Shown here piece by piece: positions 9,325-64,000 of a DNA stretch of 64,000 nt. Every line of letters starts with the position of its first letter. Position 1 is the first letter of the stretch. The position numbers and the translations under genes were made by a program. Where the stretch lies: positions 1,926-65,925 of the forward strand of contig CALRBR010000003.1 in the NCBI GenBank assembly GCA_943354385.1, in the 5' to 3' direction. The stretch is from Candidatus Tayloriibacteriota bacterium (GTDB taxonomy: Bacteria; Patescibacteriota; Minisyncoccia; Phycocordibacterales; PALSA-1337). The notes under the pieces were generated by a model. It saw only the letters and a program-made list of their open reading frames with translations, was not told the DNA's origin and did no database searches.

Positions 9325-9497
9325 GAGGAGAGTCGGACTCCTACCACATCTATGCAGTGTATGTGTAATACCATTTTATTACAGACTCAATAGATATATA
9401 GTTTACCTTAAAATAGTCTGTCAGCAATGCTTGATTTTTATACTAACATTCGGTATAGTATCTAGGCAGTTTTTAGAGACTGTACCGTCAATAACAT

Positions 9498-28744: not shown

Positions 28745-30118
28745 TCAGGTTCCCGTCGGACCGGGCAAAACCCTGAACTTGATCTCGGGATTCATCCCGG
28801 AGATCTTGATCAGGTTTGAGCCCGTCCGCTCGGCGAGGAACTTTGCGAATAGCTTCCCCAGGTTGCTCTGCTGGAGAGTCTCCCTGTCCTTGACGTAATC
28901 GTCATTGTCGGCCAAATCCTTTGCATGATGCGCGAGGAAGAGGTCGAGTGCCGACTGCGCCACTGCTATGTCTTCCTGGGTTTTGACGTCCACTGCGAGG
29001 GAGTATTCCCGAGTGATCACCTGACCACCCTTTGATTCCCGCGAGTCAAACTTTCGGAAGGTCCAACCAATCCCCCAACCACGGTCTTTGAGTCCCTTAT
29101 CCAGGGTGACCGTATTGATGTGCTTCACGAGCACGCGACCAGCCTTGAATGCCGGAGCCTTCGGTGCGGGAACGACTTGCGTTACTTTCGTGGGAGGCTG
29201 AACCTCGGCCGGCGGAGTCGCAGGCGCCTTCTGGGCCTTCACTTTCGCCGGTTGCTTGGGAGCAACAGGTGGAGCGGGGGCTAGCGCAGGTGCGAGCGTA
29301 GCGGGCTTCGGGGTCACGATCACTTTGGTCGGGACTGCCGACGTCAGTGTCCCAGTTGTCACGTTGGTGATGGTAAATGTCACGGGTGTGGGTTGCACAA
29401 CCGTCACATTCGTCACCACATTCTGAATGGTCACCGGCGGGGTTGCCGCAGGTGCCACATTCACAATGTTCGTGACAGCCGACGCCTGCACCGTAAAGGT
29501 CGCCGTTGAGGGCGCGACATTGACGATGTTGGTGATAGTGGGAACCTGCACTGTCGTGTAGTTCGTCACATTCACCACCGGCGGTTTCTGCGTGGAGATC
29601 TTCTCCAGCAGTTTCAGTTGGCCTTCGCCAACTTTCGCAAACCGTTCGAACACAGCGAGCTTGCTGTCGAGTTTTTCAGCCTTCAAGGCTTGCTCGCGTT
29701 GCTTCTCGATGTGTGCGCGGTCAGCCTTGGTCGTCGCCGCTTGGGCGTCGCTCAGGGCCATCTGGCGTTTGTGCACATCGCGGAGCTCTTGCTCGATCTG
29801 CTTCTGCACTGTCGTCTCGTGAAGAGTCGGCGGGACAGGAACGGGATTGGCAACAAGCACCGGAGCCGTGTCTTGCTTCTTGAGCGAAGCCAAGGAGTCA
29901 TGGCCGTTGGTCACGATGTAGGTGAACACGCAAGCCACCACAGCGAGAAACAGGACGGTCATGATAACCGCAAACATGTTCTTCTCTTTCTGCTTGGGGT
30001 TCGGGCTGACCGTGGGATCCCCGATGCCGAGCCAATGATTGTAGGCCCAGGCGCCGAGGACGGTGCAGAACACGACGAAGGCGGCCATCTGGAGGAGGAG
30101 TGACAGGGTGGAGTTCAT
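28745..30118 (-). CDS. Hypothetical membrane-anchored protein with coiled coil, VTNIVNVAP repeats and Pro/Ala-rich linker, encoded in a GC-rich (60-67%) island
   Basis: 457-aa ORF. Local GC is 60-67% against ~38% for the window. No recognisable family. Likely start at MFAVIMTV (~29977), giving a single TM helix. Confidence 0.6.
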   Translation of the reverse strand: MNSTLSLLLQMAAFVVFCTVLGAWAYNHWLGIGDPTVSPNPKQKEKNMFAVIMTVLFLAVVACVFTYIVTNGHDSLASLKKQDTAPVLVANPVPVPPTLHETTVQKQIEQELRDVHKRQMALSDAQAATTKADRAHIEKQREQALKAEKLDSKLAVFERFAKVGEGQLKLLEKISTQKPPVVNVTNYTTVQVPTITNIVNVAPSTATFTVQASAVTNIVNVAPAATPPVTIQNVVTNVTVVQPTPVTFTITNVTTGTLTSAVPTKVIVTPKPATLAPALAPAPPVAPKQPAKVKAQKAPATPPAEVQPPTKVTQVVPAPKAPAFKAGRVLVKHINTVTLDKGLKDRGWGIGWTFRKFDSRESKGGQVITREYSLAVDVKTQEDIAVAQSALDLFLAHHAKDLADNDDYVKDRETLQQSNLGKLFAKFLAERTGSNLIKISGMNPEIKFRVLPGPTGT

Positions 30119-38829: not shown

Positions 38830-39205
38830 AAAATCGGCAATGTTGGCTAAAATTCTCTCGGTCCCTGGATTTTCTACTAAAATCCAGGGGCCTTCCCAAA
38901 TTACCCTTCTACACAGCCACCAAACTCCCACCACACCATAGTACTTGACATTTATGTACATAGTATGCTATAATAGATAAATAAAGGTAAGTAATGGTTC
39001 TTTGATACAAGTTCGCCGACAGGATAGTGTGTGGGAGATAAAAAGGTAATATTCGCTCAGTTGATTTAATTTTACCGAACCACACCTTTCATCTCTCCCC
39101 CACTCTTCTGTCGTGTGAACAACTAAATACACATAATGGATCTTGTGCTCCCGTTTGGGCACGGAGGTAGGAATCGGAAACAGTCGGAAGGAAAAAAGGA
39201 AAATT

Positions 39206-40009
39206 ATGTTACGCAACATCACCTCCCTCGCAACAGCGATGGGACCAAAGTTCGACAAGATGTGGAGAATCGACGGCCAGTTTGGCCTCGAGGACCCCAC
39301 GCTCACGGTCATCCAAGTGCGAATGAGCTTCTTGGGCAACCAGCACCGCGTCCTCGCACGGGAGGTAGATGAGAAAATCTCCACCCGTCCGGGCACGGAT
39401 TTCAAAAAAATCCAGGGGGCGAAATACGTCCCTCTCGGCAAGGAAGTCATCCGCACGCACGGCGTGCGGATCACCAACCTATCTGCGGGGTTGCGAAACA
39501 ACAACTGGAGGTTGGTCGAACTTTACAAAACAACGGGATGGGTCAAGAACCAATATGATCCCCGTGGGCCACAACTCGAGAAGACCACCATCATGCAGGA
39601 GTGGCTCCGGTTTGAAAATATGGACGATGGCTCCCGTCCCACACAGGATGGAATCCCCATCGAAAAGACCGCGGCGAGCTTCGGTATCAGTGTCGAACAT
39701 CTCCAACAAAAGCTGGCAGCACTCGACGCCCTGCCAAAAGTCAAGGTTTTCGGGGCAGACACGCTAGACCTCATCCGTGAGCTCAACCGTGGCAAAGCAT
39801 GGAAAGATGCATTCGTGTGGGAGAACCCTCCAGGGATGTATCCCGATCGGTCCGGCCAGCTCGTCATGCAGGAGGATGGCATCCTGGCAATCAACGTTCG
39901 TGGCCCCAGCTGGGACCAGAACGCTAGGGGCGCCAACAACGCGTTGGTCGTCCACGATCACCATCTGATGGTGGTCAAAAATCTCCAGCCTGGAGAGATG
40001 GAGGAATAA
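39206..40009 (+). CDS. Hypothetical protein encoded in a second GC-rich (~60%) island
   Basis: About 267 aa from MLRNIT; the ORF-track start is at 39143. GC is ~60% against ~38% in the flanks. No family recognised. Confidence 0.55.
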   Translation: MLRNITSLATAMGPKFDKMWRIDGQFGLEDPTLTVIQVRMSFLGNQHRVLAREVDEKISTRPGTDFKKIQGAKYVPLGKEVIRTHGVRITNLSAGLRNNNWRLVELYKTTGWVKNQYDPRGPQLEKTTIMQEWLRFENMDDGSRPTQDGIPIEKTAASFGISVEHLQQKLAALDALPKVKVFGADTLDLIRELNRGKAWKDAFVWENPPGMYPDRSGQLVMQEDGILAINVRGPSWDQNARGANNALVVHDHHLMVVKNLQPGEMEE

Positions 40010-43931: not shown

Positions 43932-44231
43932 TATTTCTGGATGTTGTAAAATTTACATAGACATGAAATAAAAAGCAGAGTAACGCTCTGTTTTTTATGG
44001 ATGCACATATTGAAAAAGTGCATGTAATGGAAAAATGATGGTGGCGTGAAGGAAATGGAAATTGAACACTCTCCAGACAAAGTTGTGGGAGGGTTCAATA
44101 TTTTTTCTTATGAGTACATCTTCAAAAATTTAGAAAGTCTTTCAAGTCCTCTCTCGCAAAACGGTTCCCACTTTGCTTTGGCACAAAATACAGGTTGTTT
44201 TTCTTTCAGTGTTCTACCCGTAAGGATATTC

Positions 44232-44305
44232 ACGCAGGTGGCGGAACAATGCGGACGAGGTTTAGCGAAAACTATTTTTTGGGTTGAGAAAGTGGGGACA
44301 CTTTT
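44232..44305 (+). repeat. Partial (third) copy of the repeat family that flanks the R-M cassette
   Basis: GCAGGTGGCGGAACAATGCGGACGAGGTTTAGCGAAAACTATTTTTTGGG closely matches 58795-58850 (GCAGGTGGCGGAACAATGTGGACGAAGTTTTGGCAAAACTATTTTTTGGG). Similarity decays afterwards. Confidence 0.65.
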
Positions 44306-44348
44306 GCAAGGCCTTTTGAGCTTGTACTCAAGCCCAAATTGGATGGGA

Positions 44349-44558
44349 TTATTTTTTCTTCCAAAATTGGAATTTATCAAAAAACAAAATTCGTACACCT
44401 AATAATTCAAGACCAATAATTGCTAACCATGAACCTGGTGTGAGTGGCGTAAAGAAAGCGGCAAATCCAATAAAAAACAAAATTGCCCCTACTACCTTTT
44501 TGATTTTCGGTTTACTATGAATATATTTTTTAATGGTTTTGAGCAGATTTATACACAT
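44349..44558 (-). CDS. Possible small membrane protein downstream of the P-type ATPase
   Basis: 69 aa. Lys-rich N-terminus plus 2 hydrophobic helices. No family recognised. Confidence 0.35.
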   Translation of the reverse strand: MCINLLKTIKKYIHSKPKIKKVVGAILFFIGFAAFFTPLTPGSWLAIIGLELLGVRILFFDKFQFWKKK

Positions 44559-47240
44559 TTAAGCTAACTTTCTTCGGTAAAAGAATTTGCGTATTTCTTC
44601 AGCAGGGACAATCAATATTGCCACTGGTATGAGTATCATCCAATCGGAAAGATTGAGGGGAACTGTTTTCAAGTATGTATTCATGATTGGAGTATAAATA
44701 GCAAGTAATTGTAGTGAGATAACAGTGACAGTGGCCCACACTAAATATTTGTTAGAAAACGGGTTCATTTTGAAGATAGATTTGCTATCGGATCTACAAT
44801 TCCATGCATTAAACCATTGGAACGCAGCTAAGACGGTAAGTGATATTGTCCAAGCTTTTGCCAAGTCCGCCTCGTAGTAATTTTTAAAAAGAAAGAGTGT
44901 TCCGACAGCCATCACCAAGGACATAAGCACCATTCTCTTTGCCATCAGTTTATCAACGAAATATTTTTTCGGCTTTTCAAACTTGCCGTCGAGCAAATGA
45001 TGCTCTTTGGGTTCCATGGCCAGCGACACATCAAGAAAACCATCTGTGACAAAATTCAGCCAGATAATCTGTGCCGCTAATATTGGTAGTGGATATCCCA
45101 AAATAAGCGCACCTATAATAGTAAAAACTTCTCCCATGCTTGTTGAAAAGAGATACAAAATGACTTTCTTGATAGTCTTATAAATACTGCGACCTTCTTC
45201 AATCGCCGAAACAATACTTTCTAAATTGTCGTCGAGAAGAACGATATCAGAGGCCTCTTTTGCTACTTCGGTCCCGATGTTACCCATTGCCACACCAATA
45301 TCGGCGGCAACTAGCGATGGCGCATCATTTACCCCATCTCCAGTCATGGCCACCACTTCACCGCGAGCGCGATATGCCCCGATGATTTTCATCTTATGTT
45401 CTGGGTTCACTCGAGCAAACACTGAAATCGTTTTGAGTCTTTCTGATAACTCCCCACCGGACATGCCTTCAATTTCCAACCCAGTGAGCACTTCATCACC
45501 TTCATGCCAGATACCTACTTCTTTGGCTATGGCATGGGCGTTTATATTGTGGTCACCGGTAATCATCACTACTTTTACTCCAGCGGATTCCACCTTCTTT
45601 ATAGCCATGGCCGCTTCCGTCCTTGTGGCATCTTTCATTCCATAGAAGCCCCCGAAAGAAAGATTTTTTATCTTTTCCGGCTTGAGAGTTTTGCCTGCAT
45701 CAGGATCGATGGCAAAAGCGACCACACGCAAACCCTCCTGCGACATTTTATAAAAAACTGACTTAAGATTTTTTCGTTCATCATTTGTGAGTTCTTTCCG
45801 TTTGCCGTTCAACCAGACAGTCTCAGATAATTCCAAAATAATTTCAGGGGCACCGACGGTAATTAAAAAATTCTTGCCTTCGACAGCTCGAAGCATTGCG
45901 TGATATTTGAGCCGGTAGTCAAATGGAATTTCTCCAATAACAGCAGACTCTCTCTCAAGGTCTTCTTTGTGAAAACCAAGCTTTTGCGAGAGTACAAGCA
46001 TTGCTGCTTCGGTCGGGTCTCCGCTGATCCGGAACCGTTTATCCTCTTCGGAATACATGACCCTGGCACTAGAACAAAAAGCACCAGTCTTTCCGGCGAG
46101 TAAAAGTTCCGGATGATTAACGGCGTCAATGATACGGCCATTCAAAATGATATTACCTTTTGACTCATATCCAATACCCCCAACATCAAACATTGTTTCT
46201 CCCACATACACCTTTCGAATCACCAGCTCGTTTTTGGTGATCGTACCGGTTTTATCAACAGCAATGATACTGACTTGCCCTAAAGCCTCGACCGCCTGAA
46301 GTTTCTTGACCAGTGCGTTGCGCTTACTCATTCGTCGCACGCCCATGGCGAGAATAAGAGTCACCACAATAGGTAGTCCTTCCGGTATAATTGATACCGA
46401 CAGAGAAACAACTGTAGTGAACATATCTTTGACTGGTTTGCCAACAGCGATGCCCAGGGTAAAGATCACCAAAGAAACAACGGCTACTGTAATTATGATG
46501 AGGCGTGAAAGATACCTAATATTGCCTTTAAGAGGAATCTCGGTATTGACCAGTGCAATCTTGCTTGCAATTGCGCCTATAGTAGTTTGCGATCCTGTTG
46601 CGATAACAACAGCACGACCATTACCAGCGACTATATTCGTTCCTTTGTACGCAATATTTTTATACTTTCCGAGCGTTTCTACATTGACCTCCTGTTCACT
46701 AGTTTTATGTACTGGCTCAGACTCTCCGGTTAGGGCCGCCTCATCAATCTTAAGATTATGGGAAACAATGACTCGCGCGTCAGCCGGAATTTTCTCTCCT
46801 TCTTGGAGTATGAGAATATCCCCAGGTACCAATTCCGTATCCGGAATGATGATCTCCTTGTCGTCCCGAAGTACAGTGGCTTTGGTCTCAACGAATTTCT
46901 TAAGAGCCAGCAATGTGTTCTGCGCTTTGCCTTCCTGAATTGTCCCAACGATAGCGTTAAAAAGAAGGACAGCGAGAATGATCGATCCATCAACCACTTC
47001 TCCGATTACAAACACCACGACACTTGCGGCGACAAGTATATAAATGAGAGGACTTTGGAATTGACGCAGGAAAATAATAAAAATGCTGTCTACCTTTGCT
47101 TCCGGTAGTTTATTTTGTCCATATAGTTTCAGTCGAAGTGCCACCTCTGCGTGACTTAAGCCGCGCTCGCTTGAGTGCAATTCTTCAATAACGACTATTG
47201 ATGATTTTGTGTGCCATAAAATTTGTCGTGTTTTTGCCAT
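44559..47240 (-). CDS. Cation-transporting P-type ATPase (type II, Ca2+/Mg2+-ATPase-like)
   Basis: 893 aa. Phosphorylation motif DKTGTIT. TGES motif (LTGESEPV). Hinge MTGDGVNDAPSL. 10 TM segments. Confidence 0.9.
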   Translation of the reverse strand: MAKTRQILWHTKSSIVVIEELHSSERGLSHAEVALRLKLYGQNKLPEAKVDSIFIIFLRQFQSPLIYILVAASVVVFVIGEVVDGSIILAVLLFNAIVGTIQEGKAQNTLLALKKFVETKATVLRDDKEIIIPDTELVPGDILILQEGEKIPADARVIVSHNLKIDEAALTGESEPVHKTSEQEVNVETLGKYKNIAYKGTNIVAGNGRAVVIATGSQTTIGAIASKIALVNTEIPLKGNIRYLSRLIIITVAVVSLVIFTLGIAVGKPVKDMFTTVVSLSVSIIPEGLPIVVTLILAMGVRRMSKRNALVKKLQAVEALGQVSIIAVDKTGTITKNELVIRKVYVGETMFDVGGIGYESKGNIILNGRIIDAVNHPELLLAGKTGAFCSSARVMYSEEDKRFRISGDPTEAAMLVLSQKLGFHKEDLERESAVIGEIPFDYRLKYHAMLRAVEGKNFLITVGAPEIILELSETVWLNGKRKELTNDERKNLKSVFYKMSQEGLRVVAFAIDPDAGKTLKPEKIKNLSFGGFYGMKDATRTEAAMAIKKVESAGVKVVMITGDHNINAHAIAKEVGIWHEGDEVLTGLEIEGMSGGELSERLKTISVFARVNPEHKMKIIGAYRARGEVVAMTGDGVNDAPSLVAADIGVAMGNIGTEVAKEASDIVLLDDNLESIVSAIEEGRSIYKTIKKVILYLFSTSMGEVFTIIGALILGYPLPILAAQIIWLNFVTDGFLDVSLAMEPKEHHLLDGKFEKPKKYFVDKLMAKRMVLMSLVMAVGTLFLFKNYYEADLAKAWTISLTVLAAFQWFNAWNCRSDSKSIFKMNPFSNKYLVWATVTVISLQLLAIYTPIMNTYLKTVPLNLSDWMILIPVAILIVPAEEIRKFFYRRKLA

Positions 47241-47244
47241 AAAT

Positions 47245-47445
47245 CTACCTTATTAAGTTATCCACTTTAACTTCTAATGCATTGGCGATCCTGGTTAGGG
47301 TTTCTATCGTTGGATTTTGATTAGCGCCATTTTCAACTTTAACAATGGTATTAAGAGATAAATCAGCAAGGCGAGCTATCTTTTCGAGGGAGTAACCCCT
47401 TTTACTCCTCAACTTTCCTAGATTATCCGAAATATTATTTAACAT
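47245..47445 (-). CDS. XRE-family helix-turn-helix transcriptional regulator
   Basis: 66 aa. HTH_3 pattern (LRSKRGYSLEKIARLADLSLNTIVKVENG). Confidence 0.7.
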   Translation of the reverse strand: MLNNISDNLGKLRSKRGYSLEKIARLADLSLNTIVKVENGANQNPTIETLTRIANALEVKVDNLIR

Positions 47446-47605
47446 TACTTTGGTAATTGTTTAGCATTAAAATATAATGTATAGCGTGATTTCTTGATAT
47501 TATAATGATACATAATTTAAGCAATTTTGTAAATAAATTTTTAATGATTTTCTTTGTATTATTCGCTCGAATTTCTCCAAAATCAGCGGAGCCAATCAAA
47601 AAAAC

Positions 47606-47637
47606 AAAAAACCAACCGTATATGCGGTTGGTTTTTT
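47606..47637 (-). terminator. Terminator hairpin 3' of tRNA-Leu (ACCAACCG-loop-CGGTTGGT with A/T tracts)
   Basis: Stem-loop flanked by AAAAA and TTTTT. Confidence 0.6.
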
Positions 47638-47645
47638 GTAATTTG

Positions 47646-47727
47646 TGCCGGGGAGAGGACTTGAACCTCCATGGGTTACCCCGCTTGCTCCTAAGGCAAG
47701 TGCGTCTGCCAATTTCGCCACCCCGGC
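47646..47727 (-). tRNA. tRNA-Leu (anticodon UAG), type II with long variable arm
   Basis: Reverse complement folds as acceptor GCCGGGG, D-arm GCGAAATTGGCAGACGC, anticodon arm CTTGC-CTTAGGA-GCAAG (anticodon TAG), variable arm GGGGTAACCC, T-arm GGAGGTTCAAGTCCTCT, 3' end CCCCGGCA. Confidence 0.88.
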
Positions 47728-53403: not shown

Positions 53404-53710
53404 GGGTTTATTGTAGCATTAAAAACTAACTGTGGTCACACCAAGTAGCACTAAAATAATCGGCGACAGACAGCAAAGTTATGCGAAGAGTACTGGTATC
53501 TAGCTAATTTTTAAAATTTCCTTTATATTAGTCATTTTACTAATATCATACCACAAAAGAAAGAGACTAAGTTTAGAAAATAAGCAAAGCTTTTTCAACT
53601 TCGACTCGAACGCTGTAAACAAGAGTACTCGCGCAAGCGCCGTCGATAGGTGCACATTATCAAACGATGAGCCTTCTCGCTCGTTGAAATAAAAAATCAC
53701 ATTTTAGTGA

Positions 53711-54100: not shown

Positions 54101-55579
54101 CTACTTCTCCAAATCCAATGTCTCATCTATCCTTATCTGTGCCACAAACTCTGGGACATGGGAGACGAGAATCATCGCGCCCTTGTATTCAGAGAGAGCC
54201 TTTGCAATCAGAGGAAGGTGGCGAAAGTTAATATGGTTGGTCGGCTCGTCAAGAATAAGGAAACCTGGTTTCTCGAGGACTAGGCGAGCAAAAGCTACCA
54301 AACCTTTTTGCCCTTCAGAAAGACTTCCTATTTTTGTGTCGATCACATCTGAGGTAATGAGAAATCCTGATGCGACGGCACGCACTCGTTCCTGATCAAA
54401 TCCCCCAGCCGCGGTCATCAGTGACTTGAGTACTGTCTCATCAAAATTAAGTGTTGAAAAATCTTGTCTATAGTAGCCCACCTTCACTCCGTCAGTTATT
54501 TTAGTACCTGGAGCCGTACCTCGTGCCATAGCCTCAAGCAAAGTACTTTTACCGATACCGTTTGGACCACGCAAAAGTAAATGTTGTCCTCGTTTAAGAG
54601 AAATGTGGGATTTCCGGGCTACCGGCTTATGATTTTTACTTATTACAGTATATGAGGAAATGTTGACCAGCTCGCCGAGCATATCTTGGTGTGGAATTTC
54701 AAAAGGTCTGATAGTGCGATCCTCTTTGCGTACATCCACTTTTTCATCCTCAAGCTCTTCAGCTTTTTCTCGCATTCTTTTTGCCACCAAACGCATTTGG
54801 CCTCCCTTTTGAGCAAAAAAGTTGGCTTTGTCTTTGTTGTCTTGAATCTCTTTTGCGAGCTGGGCGTTTTTACGATTTTCTTTTTCAATACGAGCAGAAA
54901 TTTCTTTTACTACATCAAAATAATTACCGTGATACTGCTCGACTTTGCGAGTATGAATATCGAGATAAAGCACACCATCAGTAAACGCATTAAGAAAGTC
55001 TGCGTCATGAGAAATCACCACCACCGTCTTTTTATAGCCAGTTAAAAATTGTGTGAGGTGCTCGATACCGGCTTTGTCGAGGTTGTTGGTCGGCTCATCG
55101 AGAAGGAGGAGGTCTGGGTCTTGGATCAGGGCGGAAGCAAGGAGGAGACGTGCTTGCTGACCGCCTGAAAAGCTTTTAACGATTCGCTCGTGCATTTTGG
55201 CATGACCTTTGAGATTGACCACTTCCAGTACAGCATCAATACGAGGATCAATATCATACACTTTCTCAGTAAAACATTTTTCGAAAAATGCTCGGACAGT
55301 AAGTTCTAGGTCTGGCCGAGGAATGACCTGACGAGAGAGTGCTATCGTTACACCGTTCGTAAGATTTACTTTTCCTGATTCTGGCTTCAGCGCTTTAGTG
55401 ATGAGCTGAAAGATGGTGCTTTTGCCGGCACCGTTCTGACCCATAAATGTAATCTTTGTGCCACGACGAATGACAAAATTAGCCTCATCTAAAATAGGCT
55501 TGTTTTGTCCATAATCAAAGGATGTTTTTTCAAACGAAACGATGCTATCGGTTTTTGCCATGAGGTAGTACTGTAACAC
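54101..55579 (-). CDS. ABC-F family ATPase (tandem ABC domains, no TMD)
   Basis: 492 aa. Two Walker A motifs (GQNGAGKST, GPNGIGKST), two signature motifs (FSGGQQARL, LSEGQKGLV) and an inter-domain linker. Confidence 0.85.
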   Translation of the reverse strand: MLQYYLMAKTDSIVSFEKTSFDYGQNKPILDEANFVIRRGTKITFMGQNGAGKSTIFQLITKALKPESGKVNLTNGVTIALSRQVIPRPDLELTVRAFFEKCFTEKVYDIDPRIDAVLEVVNLKGHAKMHERIVKSFSGGQQARLLLASALIQDPDLLLLDEPTNNLDKAGIEHLTQFLTGYKKTVVVISHDADFLNAFTDGVLYLDIHTRKVEQYHGNYFDVVKEISARIEKENRKNAQLAKEIQDNKDKANFFAQKGGQMRLVAKRMREKAEELEDEKVDVRKEDRTIRPFEIPHQDMLGELVNISSYTVISKNHKPVARKSHISLKRGQHLLLRGPNGIGKSTLLEAMARGTAPGTKITDGVKVGYYRQDFSTLNFDETVLKSLMTAAGGFDQERVRAVASGFLITSDVIDTKIGSLSEGQKGLVAFARLVLEKPGFLILDEPTNHINFRHLPLIAKALSEYKGAMILVSHVPEFVAQIRIDETLDLEK

Positions 55580-55646
55580 GAGAATCGGAACGAATCAAGA
55601 TTTACTATTCACGATTTATGAATGGGAATGAAAACAAACGACTTAT

Positions 55647-55692
55647 ACAAATTAAAATAGCGCGACCTTTCGGTCGCGCTATTTTAATTTGT
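55647..55692. terminator. Long bidirectional terminator hairpin (CAAATTAAAATAGCGCGACC-tttc-GGTCGCGCTATTTTAATTTG)
   Basis: About 20-bp perfect stem. Lies 3' of the minus-strand csp and upstream of the ABC-F gene. Confidence 0.7.
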
Positions 55693-55711
55693 ATTCGTAC
55701 TTACGTACTAT

Positions 55712-55915
55712 TTACGCAACTACTGATACGTTGATCGCTGAAGGGCCTTTTGGTCCGTCACCGATTTCAAATGCAACTTTCATACCCTCTTTTAGAGCGT
55801 CGAAAGCAACACCTTTAAGATCCTTTGAATGGAAGAAAAGGTCCTTTGCTTCGCCTTCGCGTGCAATGAATCCAAATCCTCGATCTGTAAGAGTCTTGAT
55901 TGTTCCTGACATCAT
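55712..55915 (-). CDS. cspA: Cold-shock protein (CspA family)
   Basis: 67 aa. RNP motifs GFGFI and FFH. Confidence 0.9.
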   Translation of the reverse strand: MMSGTIKTLTDRGFGFIAREGEAKDLFFHSKDLKGVAFDALKEGMKVAFEIGDGPKGPSAINVSVVA

Positions 55916-56152
55916 GTGAATATTCTATTAGTTATACTAAGAAACTCGACTGCGTTTCTGTGCCTCTAGGCACCTATATATCAAGTATATACTATAAGTA
56001 TTATTTTGTCAAGCTTTTTGTATAAGATTTTCAATATTCACTTACAGGAATAGTAAGTACTGACAATATCAGAATGGCCCTACAGAGAATATATAAAACA
56101 AAAAGCCCGCACCCTCTGGCGCGCGCTTTTTTTGTTTGACTACTTTTAAAAA

Positions 56153-56410
56153 TTATGAGAGGTGCTTTGAAATATGTCCCGCCATCTTCATCATGTGCAC
56201 TGTCTTTTCCCCACCAAAAACCTTTTTTAACTTTTCATCATTGTTAATCATGCGCTTATCTTTTGGATCCTGAAGATTATTACCCTTGATGTAAACCCAG
56301 AGAGCTTTGACAACTTCTGATCGAGCCATTGGGCCCTTGCCAACAACAGCGGCTAGGTCAGCGCTCACAGTCAGCGGCTTCATAAATGCAGATGTAGCTT
56401 TTGGTGCCAT
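56153..56410 (-). CDS. SWIB/MDM2 domain protein
   Basis: 85 aa. PLTVSADLAAVVGKGPMARSEVVKALWVYIKGNNLQDPKDKRMINNDEKLKKVFG is the canonical SWIB domain pattern. Confidence 0.75.
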   Translation of the reverse strand: MAPKATSAFMKPLTVSADLAAVVGKGPMARSEVVKALWVYIKGNNLQDPKDKRMINNDEKLKKVFGGEKTVHMMKMAGHISKHLS

Positions 56411-56473
56411 ATATGTTTAATTATTTAATAACAAATCAATTGTATCACAGTGCAGGCGACTTGGGAAGCAGGG

Positions 56474-57214
56474 CTACTTTTTTATAAAACCCTCAAGGGC
56501 TTTCAGAGCCTCTACCGGTACCATGTACACTACGGTATTGCTTTGATCAGAAGACATGTCATTTATCGACTGGAGTGTTCTCAAATGAAGCGCTCCGGGT
56601 GTTTTTGCAAGCATTTCTGCCGCTTTTGCGATATTTTCTGATGCCGCAAGCTCCCCCTCGGAATTGATAATAACCGCTCGCTTTTCTCGTTCCGCTTCTG
56701 CTTGCTTACCGATAGTACGCTCCATATCTGCTGGCAAACTCACATCTTTCAATTCAACATTTTGAACTTTTAAACCCCAGGCATCAGTTTCCTTGTCGAC
56801 AATCTCCCTTATTCTATCCGCAATCTTATCTCGACTTGAAAGTAGCTCGTCGAGCGTGACCTCCCCTACAATATTTCGCATTGTTGTCTGTGCATATTGA
56901 GAAATCGCGTATTTAAAGTCTTCTACTTCAACTATCGCTTTGTTTGCATCACTTACTTTATAATAAATAACTGCATTTACTTTTACAGTCACATTATCTC
57001 GTGTGATGGCATTTTGATCTGGCACGTCAACTGCCTTTGTACGTATGTCCACCTTTTGGTACCCCTGAACTACAGGTAAAACAAGTCTCCAGCCAGGTTC
57101 CATAATCGAAGTAAACCTACCAAAGGTAAATTTTACCCCTCTTTCATATTGATTGATTTGGCGGATACTGATTAGTATTAAAAACAGAACAATAGCTAAA
57201 ATTGTATACAACAT
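56474..57214 (-). CDS. SPFH/band-7 (stomatin/prohibitin-like) membrane protein
   Basis: 246 aa. N-terminal TM helix then SPFH domain (RGVKFTFGRF..NVTVKVNAVIYYKV). Confidence 0.85.
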   Translation of the reverse strand: MLYTILAIVLFLILISIRQINQYERGVKFTFGRFTSIMEPGWRLVLPVVQGYQKVDIRTKAVDVPDQNAITRDNVTVKVNAVIYYKVSDANKAIVEVEDFKYAISQYAQTTMRNIVGEVTLDELLSSRDKIADRIREIVDKETDAWGLKVQNVELKDVSLPADMERTIGKQAEAEREKRAVIINSEGELAASENIAKAAEMLAKTPGALHLRTLQSINDMSSDQSNTVVYMVPVEALKALEGFIKK

Positions 57215-57272
57215 AATATGGTGTTAATAATTAAATCTGCTTAGTGTGAATACTAGCACAAGTTATTACAAA

Positions 57273-57533
57273 TTAGAATTCTTCTTTTTTCTGACTCATC
57301 AGACTTATTTTTCTCTCTCTCGACCAGCTTTGTAACTCCATTTCCCTCTTTCGTGCCTCAGAAAACGTTTTGTAGGTTTCAAAATACTTGAGTACGACAG
57401 GTCGGCGGATTTTAGTATAATGTGCGCCTGTTTTAGAGTTGTTGTGTTGATGTACCCGCTTTTCCAAATCATTTGTAAAGCCTGTATAAAAAGTCTTGTC
57501 ATTGCACTCGAGAATGTAGGTGTAGTAAAGCAT
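57273..57533 (-). CDS. GIY-YIG nuclease family protein (UPF0213/YhbQ-like)
   Basis: 86 aa. YTYILECNDKTFYTGFTNDLEKRVHQHN..E. Confidence 0.8.
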   Translation of the reverse strand: MLYYTYILECNDKTFYTGFTNDLEKRVHQHNNSKTGAHYTKIRRPVVLKYFETYKTFSEARKREMELQSWSRERKISLMSQKKEEF

Positions 57534-58156
57534 TATTTTTTTGTGACTATGAATTTGATTTTCTCGACAAGCTCAGGAAAAATCTCCTGATTGAAATGCT
57601 GGCGATTCTCAATTAAAATAGCTTCTGCCTCTGGAAGAGCTTTTTGATATTTATAAAAATTAGACACAGGAACAACCGAGTCGTCTGAGCTGTGGTAAAT
57701 ATAAATGTTTTGAATTTGTTCTGATAGTTTATTCAAATTGGTAGGTAAAATAAAGTCAACCAACGAATCTTCAAAGTCTGCATCATCATACGGAGCCGAG
57801 ATCATAAAAACTGCTTTGATCTTCTTTGAAACAGTTTCCTCAGACAAATATTTTGCCAGGAAAATACCACCCAGAGAATGTCCGATCAAAATACATCCTT
57901 CCTCGAGAAAAGGTGCTATTTTATCAAACCAAATTTTCCATTCGAGGTATTTGGCATTCTTTTTGTTGGGCATTTGCGGAAGTATCACCTGGAAGTTATT
58001 ACCCAGCTTGTCTGCGAGACCTGTTTTCCAGTCTTCTTGCATCAGTCGTGTAAAGTCCAGTTTTTTCGCCTGCAAATTTTCCAGATATTCTTCATAAGTA
58101 TCAAATGTCTCCCCTCCGTGTAGTACAATAACTTGAGTTTTCATAAGATATTTCAA
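57533..58156 (-). CDS. Alpha/beta hydrolase (YdeN/RBBP9-like serine hydrolase)
   Basis: 207 aa. GHSLGG nucleophile elbow. Start at 58156 or 58141. Confidence 0.7.
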   Translation of the reverse strand: MKYLMKTQVIVLHGGETFDTYEEYLENLQAKKLDFTRLMQEDWKTGLADKLGNNFQVILPQMPNKKNAKYLEWKIWFDKIAPFLEEGCILIGHSLGGIFLAKYLSEETVSKKIKAVFMISAPYDDADFEDSLVDFILPTNLNKLSEQIQNIYIYHSSDDSVVPVSNFYKYQKALPEAEAILIENRQHFNQEIFPELVEKIKFIVTKK

Positions 58157-58774
58157 GAATACAATATCTCTGGGTATTTAACAACAGTTTTTATAAGGAA
58201 ATGGTCGCTGACTGAGCAATCTTGTTGATATAAAAAATCGCCTGCGGGACTTGGACCATGAGTACATTTATCTCCCGCGACTAAATTTTGCTACCCGCAG
58301 AATTTGTCTGGACACCGCCTAACATTTTTATTTACTAATAAAAAAGGGCTCCGGAGTTCGATTCCAAGCGAAGGTAGTACCCACCACTTTCTTCCCGCAT
58401 AAAAATACCTTTGGTATTTTGGCTGCGGGACTTGGACGCTTCGCTATCTCACTCGCCCTCCGTGTGTCGGGCTCTTTAGAAACCCACGGTTTCTAACACT
58501 CGAGTACTCGTTGTTTTCCTCCACGGGGAACTCCCGTTCCCCGACCACTCCCCGTTCGATTCCAAGTCCCTCCGTAAAACGGCGCTTTGCGCGTTTGGCT
58601 GTGTCTCCTGAACAAAATCCGAACTTTTTACCAACAAAATCCCGATGTGGAATGAATCGTTCCGCCACTGCCTCGCTTCACTCGGCAACACCAAAGAAAA
58701 ATGTTCCTTGCTTTCCTGATTTGGCGGTGGTGAAATTTTTCTTGAAAAAGGAAAGGACATTTTTCTTCGGTGTT

Positions 58775-58967
58775 CTGCCCTCAAGGTCTCGGGCAGGTGG
58801 CGGAACAATGTGGACGAAGTTTTGGCAAAACTATTTTTTGGGGAAAGGATTTGCCAAAACTTCGGCTCATTTGTTTTTGAATTCGGATGTCGCAAATGGA
58901 AAAAGAGGGGTTTGGGGAGGAATTTTCCATTTGCTCCTCTTTTTGTTTTGGCGAAATTCGGGGCGGA
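58775..58967 (+). repeat. Left terminal inverted repeat of the R-M cassette (repeat family copy B)
   Basis: 58802-58967 is the reverse complement of 63834-64000, with 3 mismatches in ~166 bp. Confidence 0.85.
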
Positions 58968-58995
58968 CAAAAAACAGAAAAATCAAATCCAATTT

Positions 58996-61038
58996 TCATT
59001 CTTTCACTATTTTTATAGAAAATTGTATATTTTCGGCTTGATAATTCAAACGTTCACATATTTTTGCTAAAAATGCGATTATTCCATTAGCACTCATATT
59101 ACCCTCTACGACTTCATTCGTGCGAAATTCTAGTGAGTGTCTAAGCGGTTTGTCTTTATTAAAATACCATTTGAATTCTGAACTATTCTGAATTTCAGTA
59201 AATTGTGTCGGAGAATATTCGTATAAGAAATTGCAAGTTTTAGTTAGTAAATCTCTCCAATTTTTTAATTCAATTCCTTTTTCATCTTCTTCAAAATATA
59301 AATGAGAGGGCTTGCTTCGACTAAAACTATCTTCACTGGTTAAATCAAATAACTGTTCTTCTGGAATTGGTTTTGAATATGTTGTTTTTGGGTATGGCCA
59401 AATGTCTTTAGCATTTTTGACTAGATCTTTTGCTCTTTCCACTATTTTTTCTTCATTCCAAATTGTTAAACCCTCAAGTTTATAATTTAATTTTAGTCTA
59501 CTAACTTGAAAATCAATCTGTTGCTTATCTTCAAAAGAACTGTTTGATAATTCAGTATTTTTTGCAGTTAAACTTAAATTTCCAAGAGTGTGTAGATATT
59601 TATTATGTATTTCTTGCCAATTTTCTCCTAGTTTATTTTTCCAATCCTTTGTTAAAGTTTGAGGCATTATATGTTCAACAGTTAATTCATCTAAACTGAC
59701 GGGATAAGCGGAGTGGAAATTTTCTAAAGATTCTAACAAGAAATTTCTATTTTTTGATTGAAGTCTATATATCTCTTTATTTATAAGTGCACTTTCAAAT
59801 TCTTCATTGTTTGGAAATCTCTGAGAGACTCTTTTTTCAAGTAGAATATAACTCAAAATATTAATATATTGCTCTTTCCACGACTCTTCTTTTTTAATAT
59901 CTCTAGCTAGGGAAATAAATAACTTATTCAATCCTTGCGTAGTATTGTCTACTAAAATCTTTCTAAAAGCATAACTTTCTATGATAAGAAGGATATCTTT
60001 TGTAGTTTCTTCCGTTATATTTTTAGAATCTAGCTCATTAAAAACATCCAACAAGTACGGATAACAAACTGTGAACTCTATTTTATTTATTTTTAACAGT
60101 TCTTTATTGATGGCACTATTGGGATGATTTTGAATTTGTGTTAACCAGCTATAAATTCCAGCAAAATATAATAAGTCTTTCAAGACACCTTCCTTGTTTT
60201 TATAGAAGTTATCTGTTGATAATTTTTTAAAAACAGAGTAAACATCATCTTTTTTAACCCAAATCCTTAGTTTAAAAATTAAATAATTTCTTACAAATTC
60301 CGCTATATCACCAGTTGATTTTTCAATTTCAACCCAGTATTTCTTATACATTTGCTCTTGTTGGAGCGGTTCTAAATCCATTAGGATATAATTGCGTATC
60401 AAATCACCAGCGGTAAGATCTACTCCAGTAGAATTTAAGCTTTCAAAAATCAATTGGGGATCGTCTTGCCCCCTCACCAAATCTATTAAAACTATTTTTA
60501 ATCTTCTAAATGCCTCGAATAGTTGTTGAGGAGTTAATGCTTCAGATGAAATTTTATCAAAAAAGAAATTATAGTTAGTAACTATATTAGAATTAGCATT
60601 TAAGTTATTGGAATTTTCAAACAGATTTTCAAAATTCTCCTTATCTTGTTTGTTTGGCTTTAATCTAATTCTTTTATCTTTTTCGGGAGAATATTTATTA
60701 ACAAGAAAATCTAATAACTGCTCTATTAAAATATTTTCTTCATTATTTTTTGTTTCTTTTGTCTTTAAAAACTTGTGTAAGGCGATCAACATGATCGAAA
60801 CCGTTGTTAGTCTTTGTTGCCCATCAATTATGGTATATTCCTCAAATCCGCTACCAATTGTAACAAGAGTACCCAAAAAATGATCACTCCTAGTATTGTT
60901 ATTCAGGTCTACTAAATCATCCCATAGCTTCTGACAATTTATTCTTGTCCAAGCATAATCTCTTTGGTATACAGGTATAGCAAAACTTTTCCCTGTGCCT
61001 TCTAAGAATTGATAAATTGGTAATTGTTGAACTTGCAT
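58996..61038 (-). CDS. GmrSD-like type IV (modification-dependent) restriction enzyme, DUF262 + DUF1524 architecture
   Basis: 680 aa. N-terminal DUF262/ParB-like NTPase with IPVYQRDYAW and DGQQRLTT motifs. C-terminal DUF1524 His-Me finger (ELTVEHIMPQT..W..LGNLSL). Confidence 0.8.
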   Translation of the reverse strand: MQVQQLPIYQFLEGTGKSFAIPVYQRDYAWTRINCQKLWDDLVDLNNNTRSDHFLGTLVTIGSGFEEYTIIDGQQRLTTVSIMLIALHKFLKTKETKNNEENILIEQLLDFLVNKYSPEKDKRIRLKPNKQDKENFENLFENSNNLNANSNIVTNYNFFFDKISSEALTPQQLFEAFRRLKIVLIDLVRGQDDPQLIFESLNSTGVDLTAGDLIRNYILMDLEPLQQEQMYKKYWVEIEKSTGDIAEFVRNYLIFKLRIWVKKDDVYSVFKKLSTDNFYKNKEGVLKDLLYFAGIYSWLTQIQNHPNSAINKELLKINKIEFTVCYPYLLDVFNELDSKNITEETTKDILLIIESYAFRKILVDNTTQGLNKLFISLARDIKKEESWKEQYINILSYILLEKRVSQRFPNNEEFESALINKEIYRLQSKNRNFLLESLENFHSAYPVSLDELTVEHIMPQTLTKDWKNKLGENWQEIHNKYLHTLGNLSLTAKNTELSNSSFEDKQQIDFQVSRLKLNYKLEGLTIWNEEKIVERAKDLVKNAKDIWPYPKTTYSKPIPEEQLFDLTSEDSFSRSKPSHLYFEEDEKGIELKNWRDLLTKTCNFLYEYSPTQFTEIQNSSEFKWYFNKDKPLRHSLEFRTNEVVEGNMSANGIIAFLAKICERLNYQAENIQFSIKIVKE

Positions 61039-61087
61039 AATAACTACATATTAGCATTTTTAGCCCTTAATATCAACGATTCTTAAT

Positions 61088-61837
61088 TTATTTTTGAAAC
61101 ACAAAAAGATGTTCGTGCATTATCAGTAAGAAGTTTGATTCCTTTGATTTTGTGACCCAAAAACCTGTTGCTTTGCAATTAAACTGTCTTTTGATTATGT
61201 CCTCTTTTAAAACAAAACCTACATCTAAAAACTTCTGCATTACCTTAAATGCAAGAGGTTGATACATTTTATTTCTGCGAGTGTCTCCCATTAAAATTGC
61301 ACAGTATTTTCCTTTCTTTAAAACTCGAAACAACTCTTTGGCAACTTTTTCTATTTCATCAACAAAAACGTCTATGTCGTGTATTCCCGAAAGATCTTCC
61401 TTAATCTTACCCTCACTGTATTTTATTATGTCTGCATAGGGAGGATGAGTTAAAACAAAATCAATTTCATTGTCTTTAATAAAGCTCATATCTCTCGCAT
61501 CACATTTCACGATCCGTTGTTTCGCTTTATTATCAACCTCAAATTCAAGAGATTTTTTAGTTCTCTCTAGTGCTTCTTCATTTACATCAATACAAGTAAT
61601 ATGGCGATTTAGTATCTTTGCTTCTATTGCCGTAGTACCTCCACCGATCATGCAATCGAGCAAGTGATCTTTTTCTTTTGAATAACGCAAAATAAGATTG
61701 CGGGCTACTTCGGGCGACCAGTTTCCGCGCCAGTCAGAAGTATGCGTTGCCCAATTACCACGACGAGGAAAAGCCCATACGGTTGTACACTCTAGTTCAA
61801 ATTCATCTGGGTTAAGTTTCATCTCTATTTCAGACAT
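61088..61837 (-). CDS. SAM-dependent DNA methyltransferase (amino-MTase; motif I before motif IV)
   Basis: 249 aa. AdoMet motif LLDCMIGGGTTAIEA. Catalytic (D/H)PPY-type motif DFVLTHPPYADII. Its start abuts the REase stop (61837/61838). Confidence 0.75.
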   Translation of the reverse strand: MSEIEMKLNPDEFELECTTVWAFPRRGNWATHTSDWRGNWSPEVARNLILRYSKEKDHLLDCMIGGGTTAIEAKILNRHITCIDVNEEALERTKKSLEFEVDNKAKQRIVKCDARDMSFIKDNEIDFVLTHPPYADIIKYSEGKIKEDLSGIHDIDVFVDEIEKVAKELFRVLKKGKYCAILMGDTRRNKMYQPLAFKVMQKFLDVGFVLKEDIIKRQFNCKATGFWVTKSKESNFLLIMHEHLFVFQK

Positions 61838-62437
61838 TTAGACGATTTTATATTTTTTAGATTTAACTAATTTAATAGAATCGTAACTATTTTTATCTGT
61901 AAACTTATATTGCCAAATTAAATACTCATCAATTCTTTTTTCAAAAAACAATAGGAAAACTTCTTTTTTTGTATGTTCTGTCCATTGTCTGTATGGATAA
62001 TATAATTGCCTAATTATTGTATTTTTTGTAGATGAATTTTTAGCTTCTATTAGAACAATTTTATTTTTTCCTTCATAACCAGCATCAACTTCTGTCTGAA
62101 CCCCCTTCGTTTCAATTGTGGTATTACCAATTTTATAACTAAACTCCGGTGTATATTTTCTCCCTCTGATTGCTAGCACAAGCGAAGGATCGTCCATGAA
62201 TGTTCTAATGAGACTTGAAGCATAGGCAAAATCAAGATGTTGCATCTCAGAATTTCCAATTTTTGCTGTGTCTAAATCAAAATCGAGCTTGGTATTATAA
62301 ATTTCAGCTTCACTTTTAATTTCAGGAATATCAACATATCCCTCGGCTTTTACAAGAACATATTGACCATTTTTTACTGGCAATAAGACTAGCCCATTTT
62401 CTTTCATTATTACTGGAACACTTTCTCTTGTATCCAT
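61838..62437 (-). CDS. Putative type II restriction endonuclease (PD-(D/E)xK)
   Basis: 199 aa. Candidate catalytic core ..TEVDAGYEGKNKIVLIEAKN.. (D...E-A-K). Sandwiched between two MTase genes. Confidence 0.5.
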   Translation of the reverse strand: MDTRESVPVIMKENGLVLLPVKNGQYVLVKAEGYVDIPEIKSEAEIYNTKLDFDLDTAKIGNSEMQHLDFAYASSLIRTFMDDPSLVLAIRGRKYTPEFSYKIGNTTIETKGVQTEVDAGYEGKNKIVLIEAKNSSTKNTIIRQLYYPYRQWTEHTKKEVFLLFFEKRIDEYLIWQYKFTDKNSYDSIKLVKSKKYKIV

Positions 62438-62600
62438 CTTGCATAAAATCCGAACTTCTTTTTCTGTTGTACTTTTAAAATCTTGAACTGATTTTTTTAT
62501 ATCTTTTGCAGATAAATAAAATGGTGATTTAGAAAAATTATGTTCTAAAATTTTGTTATCCTTAAATATTTTTGTCCAAGAATTATTGTTAGCCTTAAAT

Positions 62601-63557
62601 TTAATAATTAGTTACCAATACCTCTGTAATTTTTCCTCTTTTAGAAGCGTCGGAGTTAATGGCACGACCCGCTTGTACTTTTGTAATACGGACACCTTTA
62701 ATCTTGGAATAAATTTTGTTAATAAATGCAGTGTCGGAATTTGAAAGCATAACAAAACAACCTCGTTTGTGTAGTTCTACAAATGTATCTCTTAGTTCGG
62801 TTTGCTCTTTATCTAAAAATGCCTCGCTGGTGTATGAAGTAAATGACGCGGTTTTACTTACTGGATAATATGGTGGATCAAAATAAACAAAATCTCCTTT
62901 CTTTGCTTTTTTAAGCACTTCTCTGTAATCCTGTTTTATTATCTCAACATTTTTCAATGCTTTTGATGCTTTTCTAAGATTATTTTCATCACAAATAAGA
63001 GGGTTTGTATATTTACCAAACGGAACATTAAACCCACCTTTGCTGTTCACGCGATACATACCATTGAAACAAGTTCTGTTCAGATAGATAAAACGAGAGG
63101 CAGTATTTAAATCAGAAAGCTTTTCTGGATTTTGTGCCCGTATTTTTAGAAAATATTCCTTGTCTAGTTTATGTTTTTTGAGTGATTTTATTAGACTTTC
63201 AACATCACTTTTAATTACATTGTAAGTGATAACAAGTTCATTGTTCAAATCAGAAAGATAAGCTGTTTCAGGAAGAAGATCAAAGAATACTGCACCTCCG
63301 CCGACAAATGGTTCAAAATATTTTCCGCTTTGTGGATCAAATTTTTCTGGTGGATAAAGATTCATTAAACGAAATTGTGCGAGGAGTTGTCTTTTTCCAC
63401 CAACCCACTTAACAAAAGGTTTTGGTTTTTCTGCAATAATGCGGGAAGCGTCTTCAATGAGTTTTGTTTTATCTGCAAGCGAAAAAACCCTGTAAGCATA
63501 AATCGAATTTATGTTGAAGGTTTCTTTAATTTCTAAAATTGCTTGGTCTTTTGTCAT
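62601..63557 (-). CDS. Dam-family (D12 class, alpha) N6-adenine DNA methyltransferase
   Basis: 318 aa. KWVGGKRQLL (Dam motif). Motif I YFEPFVGGGAVFF. Motif IV VYFDPPYYP. Confidence 0.85.
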   Translation of the reverse strand: MTKDQAILEIKETFNINSIYAYRVFSLADKTKLIEDASRIIAEKPKPFVKWVGGKRQLLAQFRLMNLYPPEKFDPQSGKYFEPFVGGGAVFFDLLPETAYLSDLNNELVITYNVIKSDVESLIKSLKKHKLDKEYFLKIRAQNPEKLSDLNTASRFIYLNRTCFNGMYRVNSKGGFNVPFGKYTNPLICDENNLRKASKALKNVEIIKQDYREVLKKAKKGDFVYFDPPYYPVSKTASFTSYTSEAFLDKEQTELRDTFVELHKRGCFVMLSNSDTAFINKIYSKIKGVRITKVQAGRAINSDASKRGKITEVLVTNY

Positions 63558-63561
63558 ATGT

Positions 63562-63774
63562 CTATTTTAACAATTCATCGCTCGAAACACCAAGGGCTTT
63601 GGCAATATTAGTAATGGTTGAAAGTGTCGGGTTTGTCTTCCCATTTTCAATATTGCTTATAAAACTTCGGCTAACGCCGAGGTTTCGGACAATATCGCCC
63701 TGTGTTATGCCTTTTTCTGTTCGGATACGCTTTAAATTCTTGCCTAATTTCGCAGATTCGCTTTTCATATCCAC
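63562..63774 (-). CDS. R-M controller (C) protein, XRE-family HTH
   Basis: 70 aa. HTH_3 (LKRIRTEKGITQGDIVRNLGVSRSFISNIENGK). First gene of the cassette, 4 nt upstream of the Dam-like MTase. Confidence 0.75.
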   Translation of the reverse strand: MDMKSESAKLGKNLKRIRTEKGITQGDIVRNLGVSRSFISNIENGKTNPTLSTITNIAKALGVSSDELLK

Positions 63775-63825
63775 AGTATAGCACTAACATTTACATTATA
63801 CACCAATATTATAGTATAATGTAAT

Positions 63826-64000
63826 AGTATGATTTCCGCCCCGAATTTCGCCAAAACAAAAAGAGGAGCAAATGGAAAATTCCTCCCCAAACCCCTCCTT
63901 TTCCATTTGCGACATCCGAATTCAAAAACAAATGAGCCGAAGTTTTGGCAAATCCTTTCCCCAAATAATAGTTTTGCCAAAACTTCGTCCGCATTGTTCC
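63826..64000 (-). repeat. Right terminal inverted repeat of the R-M cassette (copy C, truncated by the window end)
   Basis: Reverse complement matches 58802-58967. Confidence 0.85.

Follow-up and report, generated by a model that had tools for sequence, protein, structure and literature searches.

An R-M cassette between structured inverted arms, inserted at a tRNA-Gln 3' end in a Patescibacteria genome

How is a compact block of restriction-modification (R-M) genes delimited, and how does it move, when it lies between inverted repeats with no transposase alongside? The question is raised by a 64,000-nucleotide stretch of DNA (the window) from a Candidatus Tayloriibacteriota bacterium (contig CALRBR010000003.1, assembly GCA_943354385.1), in which the first-pass annotation, made from the sequence alone, had described an R-M cassette between repeats resembling a miniature inverted-repeat transposable element (MITE). 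We favour, with moderate confidence, a different reading for this Parcubacteria-type genome: a recombinase-mobilised, tRNA-targeted island, in which the cassette would sit between structured inverted arms, and not a MITE.

The inverted match first described is indeed present. The segment 58802-58967 agrees with 63835-64000, read in reverse complement, over 166 nt at 98% identity, with three mismatches (58811, 58836 and 58904), and the two arms converge across an interval of 4867 nt. Chance is ruled out as the origin of a repeat of this length and identity. The extent of ~170 bp assigned to it was an artefact of the window edge. Homology to ~55 other copies, together with alignment, covariation and the empty-site break at 58601|58602 described below, places the left (distal) arm at 58598-58970 on the plus strand, as a full-length three-hairpin module that starts with GCTGTGTCTCC... 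at its outer end and finishes with ...TTCGGGGCGGACA at its inner end. The right (proximal) arm is, as had been noted, cut off by the window end, and only its inner 166 nt (63835-64000, minus strand) were available. In a contig that is 99.95% identical over the cassette (L001), this arm continues for a further 38 nt, its match to the left side reaching back to 58763, so that the 18-mer GCAGGTGGCGGAACAATG, once taken for the outermost end of the repeats, is internal. The L001 arm is a mixture of window left-arm and right-arm variants (T, T and G at the three diagnostic sites), and a further contig (L002) spans the left arm into both flanks. Assembly contigs tend to break at the arms. Just inside the left arm, a short extension exclusive to distal-type arms (58971-58995, plus strand; CAAAAAACAGAAAAATC...) reaches the stop codon of the neighbouring GmrSD-family gene and marks the point at which the right arm diverges; at eight other loci (L020, L021, L023, L029, L033, L086, L091 and L095) homology to the window extends beyond the inner end to 58991-59005.

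The 18-mer retrieved 109 stretches from species-representative genomes, ~55-57 of them true homologues of the arm. These lie almost entirely in metagenome-assembled genomes of Patescibacteria, across many lineages; viral contigs gave no match to the 18-mer. By BLAST, the conserved module corresponds to window positions ~58598-58970 and is 72-97% identical to the other copies, some of which carry an extra ~80-nt module. The arm had been thought a dispersed repeat, a description that does not hold: species-representative genomes carry one or two copies, about one pair each, and the window holds one pair and two relics of a second. Many copies lie at the end of a contig, which is to be expected where two copies occur in inverted orientation. 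In a single metagenome scan for head-to-head arms lacking cargo, the palindromic 'empty' form, only unrelated GC-rich hairpins were recovered.

Seven independent convergent pairs, including that of the window, enclose cassettes of 3.3-5.0 kb. Complete arms are present in the curated assembly LBUF02000001.1 (L091+L105, here LBUF; 340 bp, 100% identical) and in JBAQFO010000009.1 (L033+L018, here JBAQ; 367 bp, 96% identical), and the remaining pairs are CAIMLU010000050.1 (L020+L041, here CAIM), L004, L010 and L076. In all seven, the inner junction is the same, ...TTCGGGGCGGACA followed at once by cargo, despite the differing cargo. The arms mark the cassette boundaries, as the coincidence of repeats and cassette at this one locus had suggested. 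A co-directional XRE-family gene lies 38-139 nt inside one arm, the proximal one, in 7/7 pairs, and the remaining cargo mostly runs from the proximal towards the distal arm. The outer arm ends, by comparison, fall into several module types. Within pairs the arms are 96-100% identical, as against the 72-97% that separates the window arm from the copies of other genomes.

The cargo is mostly R-M or other defence genes: N6/N4, D12 and C5 methyltransferases, MvaI/BcnI- and HinP1I-type nucleases, HNH and GmrSD proteins, and LexA-methyltransferase fusions. One pair (L076) instead encloses MsrA, MsrB, a DsbD-thioredoxin fusion and thioredoxin. The claim that the repeats hold five defence genes and nothing else is therefore right for the window and too narrow for the element. 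The window and LBUF share arms (95-97% identity) and 3 kb of cassette (91.7%), differ in their distal cargo, and show neither alignment nor synteny in their flanks. Shared arms and cassette within unrelated flanks indicate, from these comparisons, that arms plus cassette are transferred horizontally and that the units are mosaic.

Two further observations concern the other loci. A second conserved, non-coding, GC-rich block of ~500 nt (83-92% identity), absent from the window, adjoins the inner end of distal-type arms and has no Rfam match and no conserved open reading frame (ORF); it lies at L095 754-1300, L021 7063-7543, L023 4321-4678, L029 1007-1274, L086 85-632, L025 3006-3415, L008 1-429 and L064 7333-7872. 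In addition, a LexA-like DNA-binding domain is joined to an S24 peptidase and a DNA methyltransferase (N6/N4 or C5) at L004:4749-6611, in a 525-amino-acid ORF of L008 and at L048:3275-4798, an unusual architecture suggestive of modification under damage-responsive control.

Selection for structure acts on the arms. The left arm folds into a ~150-nt hairpin (A) followed by two shorter hairpins (B and C), with a z-score of -7 to -8. Across an alignment of 24 sequences, paired cells make up 98.4%, and changes on both sides occur in 11 pairs (59 cells); 0/500 shuffles reached this pairing and these compensatory changes, controls with slid partners scored far lower, and the loops are nearly invariant among copies. 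Rfam 15 at gathering score recognised only tRNAs in the window and no family on the arms, and at E <= 10 it gave only weak matches of microRNA models to the hairpins. Supported by covariation and unmatched in Rfam, the arm is a candidate for a structured element of RNA or DNA; its stems, Watson-Crick on either strand, would suit both kinds of hairpin. The plus strand folds better (-126 vs -107 kcal/mol), while G-U and A-C pairs are equally frequent (5 vs 5) on pairs predicted for both strands. T-runs follow hairpins B and C each on the strand that reads from outside inward, which suggests that the arms may insulate a potentially toxic operon.

Two other identities for the arm were considered and rejected. 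A protein-coding arm is contradicted by an open frame that differs between copies, by several frames being open simultaneously and by common 1-2-nt indels. As a side observation, stop codons are depleted in 58652-58972 and its homologues (5-9 vs 13-15 expected from dinucleotide-preserving shuffles, all six frames), which produces long spurious ORFs on both strands. The MITE-like reading also failed: the first 50 nt of the arm, compared with the reverse complement of its last 50, gave a local score of 9 (shuffle mean 6.8, maximum 11), so that the arm, by this comparison, lacks terminal inverted repeats of its own, and it is low-copy and ~373 nt long in the one full-length copy measured (340 and 367 bp as inverted arms in the two complete pairs).

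An empty site shows that the arm-cassette-arm unit is an insertion, polymorphic for presence and absence at the 3' end of a tRNA-Gln gene. The genome with the empty site, GCA_965006225.1 (L126/L129), was reached through homologues of the flanking hydrolase and is 99.26% identical to window 54666-58601. There, the flank runs straight into tRNA-Gln(ttg) and then a dnaX-type gene, with neither arms nor cassette, and the same empty join recurs at 100% identity in L136, a metagenome contig of that sample series. Homology breaks at 58601|58602, exactly where the left arm has its outer end and, on the other side, at the last bases of tRNA-Gln; the empty junction reads ...CCCGCAGCCA|AACGCGCAAAG and that of the window ...GGAGACACAGCCA|AACGCGCAAAG. 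GGCTG at the arm end and CAGCC at the tRNA end form a short core common to the two, and CAGCCA is common to the window and the tRNA end. The search for empty-site alleles proposed in the first-pass annotation thus succeeded.

The adjoining non-coding flank (58157-58597), which follows tRNA-Gln in the empty-site genome, contains three relic tRNA-Gln 3' ends (TCCAAGTCCC) at 58246-58255(-), 58427-58436(-) and 58561-58570(+), where 0.11 would be expected. Two are direct and one inverted relative to the tRNA, all are also present in the empty-site genome, and they are probably scars of earlier integrations, such as an attachment site in repeated use would be expected to accumulate. A hairpin at 58433-58580 was considered as a tRNA or tmRNA and dismissed, being built from these relic ends. 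Elsewhere, a tRNA lies within ~200 nt of an arm outer end at 8/57 loci, and a tRNA-Gln adjoins the proximal arm in LBUF and L111 as well. With the right junction of the window lying outside it, target-site duplication was assessed in the two complete pairs: JBAQ has none, and LBUF has a ~13-nt direct repeat (ATTTCGTATTTAA) after the tRNA and beyond the distal arm.

The tRNA-Gln locus is also variable in the sampled population, where it forms a hypervariable hotspot with at least four alleles: empty; recombinase with an arm-type end; recombinase with another structured region and a 458-amino-acid protein; and two others (differing stretches at L130 10812-12986 and, in L132 and L133, after position 9332). 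A ~116-nt repeat (90%) is shared between window 53578-53696 and the ferredoxin-gene region upstream of dnaX (L129 5409-5582).

Which enzyme could act at such a site? With large serine recombinase (LSR) queries, tblastn found no recombinase or transposase homologue in the window, and all-against-all clustering of flanking ORFs across the arm loci grouped only methyltransferases. Among ORFs outside the arms, Pfam counts were topped by the LSR domains Resolvase, Recombinase and Zn_ribbon_recom. At four loci (L016, L018, L020 and L032), an LSR gene starts ~140-260 nt outside the proximal arm and reads away from it into a convergent tRNA 3' end. The dnaX product of the empty-site genome led to three further contigs (L138, L130 and L131) in which tRNA-Gln is followed by a 525-526-amino-acid Resolvase+Recombinase+Zn_ribbon protein, 44-51% identical to the recombinases of those four loci. 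L138 shares its assembly with L002, and L130 shares its own with L001 and L112. Eighty nucleotides past the recombinase region, L138 ends with GGCTGTGTCTCCTGAACAAAATCCGAACTTTTTACCAA, the exact sequence of window 58597-58634 at the outer end of the left arm. Judging from these sister contigs, a serine recombinase gene most likely lies just beyond position 64000. The absence of a transposase noted at first therefore applies to the window itself; in contigs from the same samples an LSR lies between tRNA-Gln and an arm-type end, and the same family occurs in four other genomes. Comparison of the loci thus establishes, at the level of sequence, a recurrent arm-then-XRE-then-cargo layout associated with one recombinase family and with tRNAs.

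The recombinase gene is itself bracketed by inverted repeats of 110-144 bp, one of which starts at the last bases of the tRNA and overlaps the 3' coding end of the recombinase (JBAQ 9156-9299 / 10694-10833; L020 4616-4736 / 6156-6275; L131 10894-11003; L138 5384-5515). Alleles without a recombinase (L048 and L111) have a short palindrome where these repeats would sit.

In the island that we propose, a tRNA would be followed by an optional LSR gene reading back into it, then by the proximal arm, the HTH (helix-turn-helix) gene, the cargo operon and the inverted distal arm. The LSR would integrate and excise the island at the shared short core, GGCTG in the arm end and CAGCC in the tRNA 3' end, and units lacking an LSR would be mobilised in trans or be stranded. 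The arms could provide shared flanks for cassette replacement or inversion, insulate a toxic R-M operon against read-through, or both. Integration by this LSR and the role of the arms are what we infer; the exact inner junction, the homogenisation within pairs and the mosaic cargo point to cassette replacement at or between arms.

Several observations weigh against this proposal. To our knowledge, site-specific integrases normally neither need nor create long inverted repeats, which leaves a recombination role for the arms hypothetical. An LSR is present at only 4-7 of the ~45 loci with outer flanks. Because the window stops within the right arm, its link to an LSR and tRNA-Gln is drawn from sister contigs, and in L138 the match to the left arm is lost after 38 nt, so that the outer parts of the two arms differ. 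No circular junction was seen among the contigs, and no cassette in the opposite orientation was found in L001, L002, L112-L114 or L129-L138, though contigs break in the arms. The comparison of G-U pairs gave no preference for either strand, and a consensus terminator scan called none in the arms. A more ambitious version of the proposal is best regarded as tentative: the arms would be a new class of structured nucleic acid, the recognition or synapsis substrate of one LSR family, and Patescibacteria would share a gene-capture 'cassette chromosome' anchored to tRNA 3' ends, with a precise exchange of XRE-headed cassettes at ...GGGGCGGACA.

An alternative, which we think unlikely, is that the arm-to-arm unit is a non-autonomous transposon with the arms as very long terminal inverted repeats, mobilised in trans, and that the recombinase is a separate neighbour at a tRNA hotspot. 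Units without an LSR do stand directly after tRNAs in LBUF (19 nt), L111, L103, L048 and L030, empty-site homology breaks exactly at the arm outer end, ATTTCGTATTTAA recurs beyond the distal arm of LBUF, and the recombinase has its own separate inverted repeats, replaced in LSR-less alleles by the short palindrome. Such a transposon is harder to reconcile with the JBAQ pair, which has no target-site duplication, with about one pair per genome, and with outer ends that are several unrelated modules and can differ between the arms of one pair; no known transposase family uses ends of this kind. Less probable still is that the arms are portable flanks between which cassettes are swapped by homologous recombination after DNA uptake, the arms being kept also as transcriptional insulators. 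DpnI/DpnII cassette exchange in pneumococcus is analogous, and such swapping would fit the mosaic cargo of the window and LBUF within shared arms, the homogenisation within pairs, the mixed variants of the L001 arm and the inward-strand T-runs after hairpins B and C. Homology alone, however, explains neither the compensatory base changes, the invariant loops and the exact inner junction nor a first insertion at a tRNA end whose empty site has no arm, and the terminator scan was negative.

We give very little credence to phase variation, in which the serine recombinase or RecA would flip the cassette between its inverted arms as an invertible segment. The inverted geometry beside a serine recombinase gene, the chimeric L001 arm and the breaking of assemblies at the arms speak for such a segment, but the opposite orientation appears in no contig, the cargo runs from proximal to distal arm in all pairs examined, and promoter and regulator lie inside the segment, so that flipping would not switch expression. 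Finally, the arms are longer than the k-mer size and form the ends of many contigs, as might follow from a chimeric join or fold-back during assembly. This origin is effectively excluded by independent assemblies that agree with one another, among them the curated LBUF02000001.1 with its complete 340-bp pair; L002 spans the left arm and extends to either side of it, and the seven pairs come from different projects.

The proposed tRNA-targeted, recombinase-mobilised island can also be set beside known systems. Patescibacteria have tiny genomes with few recognised mobile elements, and their acquisition of defence and stress genes is poorly understood; the arm supplies a recognisable sequence marker for accessory cassettes across the phylum, and a population-level empty site, a candidate recombinase and a defined junction make cassette mobility directly testable in an uncultured group. 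In the staphylococcal and enterococcal cassette chromosomes (SCC), Ccr large serine recombinases insert variable cargo, R-M systems included, at the 3' end of a conserved gene, and cassettes without a recombinase and tandem arrays exist. SCC differ in their target, rlmH and not a tRNA, in their short boundary repeats and in having no conserved structured arm of this size. The pdif modules of Acinetobacter plasmids are recombinase-less gene modules between inverted sites, exchanged among replicons, but they use XerC/D sites of 28 bp; nothing dif-like was identified in the present analysis, which made no test aimed at it. In MITE-bounded composites, for example those that mobilise integrons, cargo lies between two short non-coding repeats, each a multi-copy MITE with its own terminal inverted repeats and target duplications; the present arms have neither of the first two properties, and no clear target duplication was noted. 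Integron hallmarks are likewise missing: the arms are inverted, and Phage_integrase is not among the 25 families with most flanking-ORF matches (of 98 inner and 153 outer).

R-M cargo flanked by inverted repeats, described at first as rarely documented, has a precedent in 24 transposon-like units of this kind reported by Furuta, Abe and Kobayashi (2010, NAR; PMC2853133). Those units resemble the present one in holding R-M genes between inverted repeats, with no transposase inside and with insertion shown by an empty site, and the same study describes a unit of R-M genes plus integrase inserted in a tRNA gene. They differ in having repeats of 26-65 bp that are unique to each unit, with 8-bp target duplications, whereas the present arms measure 340-373 nt, are structured, are conserved in dozens of genomes and enclose interchangeable cargo; a clear target duplication was not observed in the present case, and insertion is at a tRNA 3' end. 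The tycheposons of Prochlorococcus (bioRxiv 10.1101/2020.12.28.424599) are likewise cargo elements at tRNA genes of streamlined genomes; most use a tyrosine recombinase and a minority a large serine recombinase, and they accrete in tandem, leave partial-tRNA scars and number ~1-2 per genome. They differ in their direct partial-tRNA repeats, in having no long inverted structured arms, in the replication genes that many carry and in the host phylum. Tycheposons and SCC-type cassette chromosomes may thus be regarded as functional analogues. A literature search found no described Patescibacteria element of this kind, and long, structured, phylum-wide inverted arms with a fixed cargo junction are a feature of none of the systems compared here.

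The cargo of the window comprises exactly five genes, all on the minus strand. An XRE-family HTH gene of controller (C-protein) type is the first after the proximal arm (63562-63774; Pfam HTH_3, PADLOC Control_protein). The predicted promoter/operator of this gene (63775-63834, minus strand), as read from the sequence, carries a C-box-like 11-bp inverted repeat (TTACATTATAC...GTATAATGTAA). The HTH gene is followed by genes for a Dam-family N6-adenine DNA methyltransferase (62601-63557; Pfam MethyltransfD12, TIGR00571, PADLOC MTase_II), a putative type II restriction endonuclease with DUF6996/DUF6997 and a D...EAK motif (61838-62596; Pfam DUF6997, PADLOC REase_II, 1.5e-33), a second, N6/N4 DNA methyltransferase (61088-61837; Pfam N6_N4_Mtase, PADLOC MTase_II, 2e-90) and a GmrSD-family type IV restriction enzyme (58996-61038; Pfam GmrSD_N and GmrSD_C, PADLOC Orf5, HEC-06 and mREase_IV). 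One operon thus contains two MTase_II, one REase_II and one Control_protein by PADLOC, with Pfam agreeing, and by its domain content the cargo is a C-protein-controlled type II R-M system plus GmrSD. The putative restriction gene begins with AAG at 62594-62596, where the 99.9%-identical L002 has ATG (173-175), so that its start codon has been lost in the window; the first in-frame ATG is at 62437. The restriction gene may therefore be inactivated while both methyltransferases are intact.

Finally, the window probably contains a second, decayed cassette of the same design at 44183-47727, beside a tRNA-Leu gene (47645-47727, minus strand). The third repeat copy claimed at 44.2 kb is only a ~150-nt fragment (44183-44338, plus strand; blastn, nhmmer E = 9e-22), the relic of a distal arm of the variant with the extra module. 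A ~40-nt remnant of the inner end of a proximal arm (47561-47600, minus strand) lies between tRNA-Leu and an HTH gene, with a weak nhmmer match (E = 0.2) but in the predicted place and orientation. The arm relic and this remnant flank an XRE HTH gene (47245-47445) followed by a P-type (Ca2+-type) ATPase gene (44559-47240), the predicted cargo (44559-47445, minus strand), and together they make the second cassette probable. The G+C content of the window is ~0.41 on average, and higher in the 1-kb bins 29001-30000 (0.58) and 39001-40000 (0.53).

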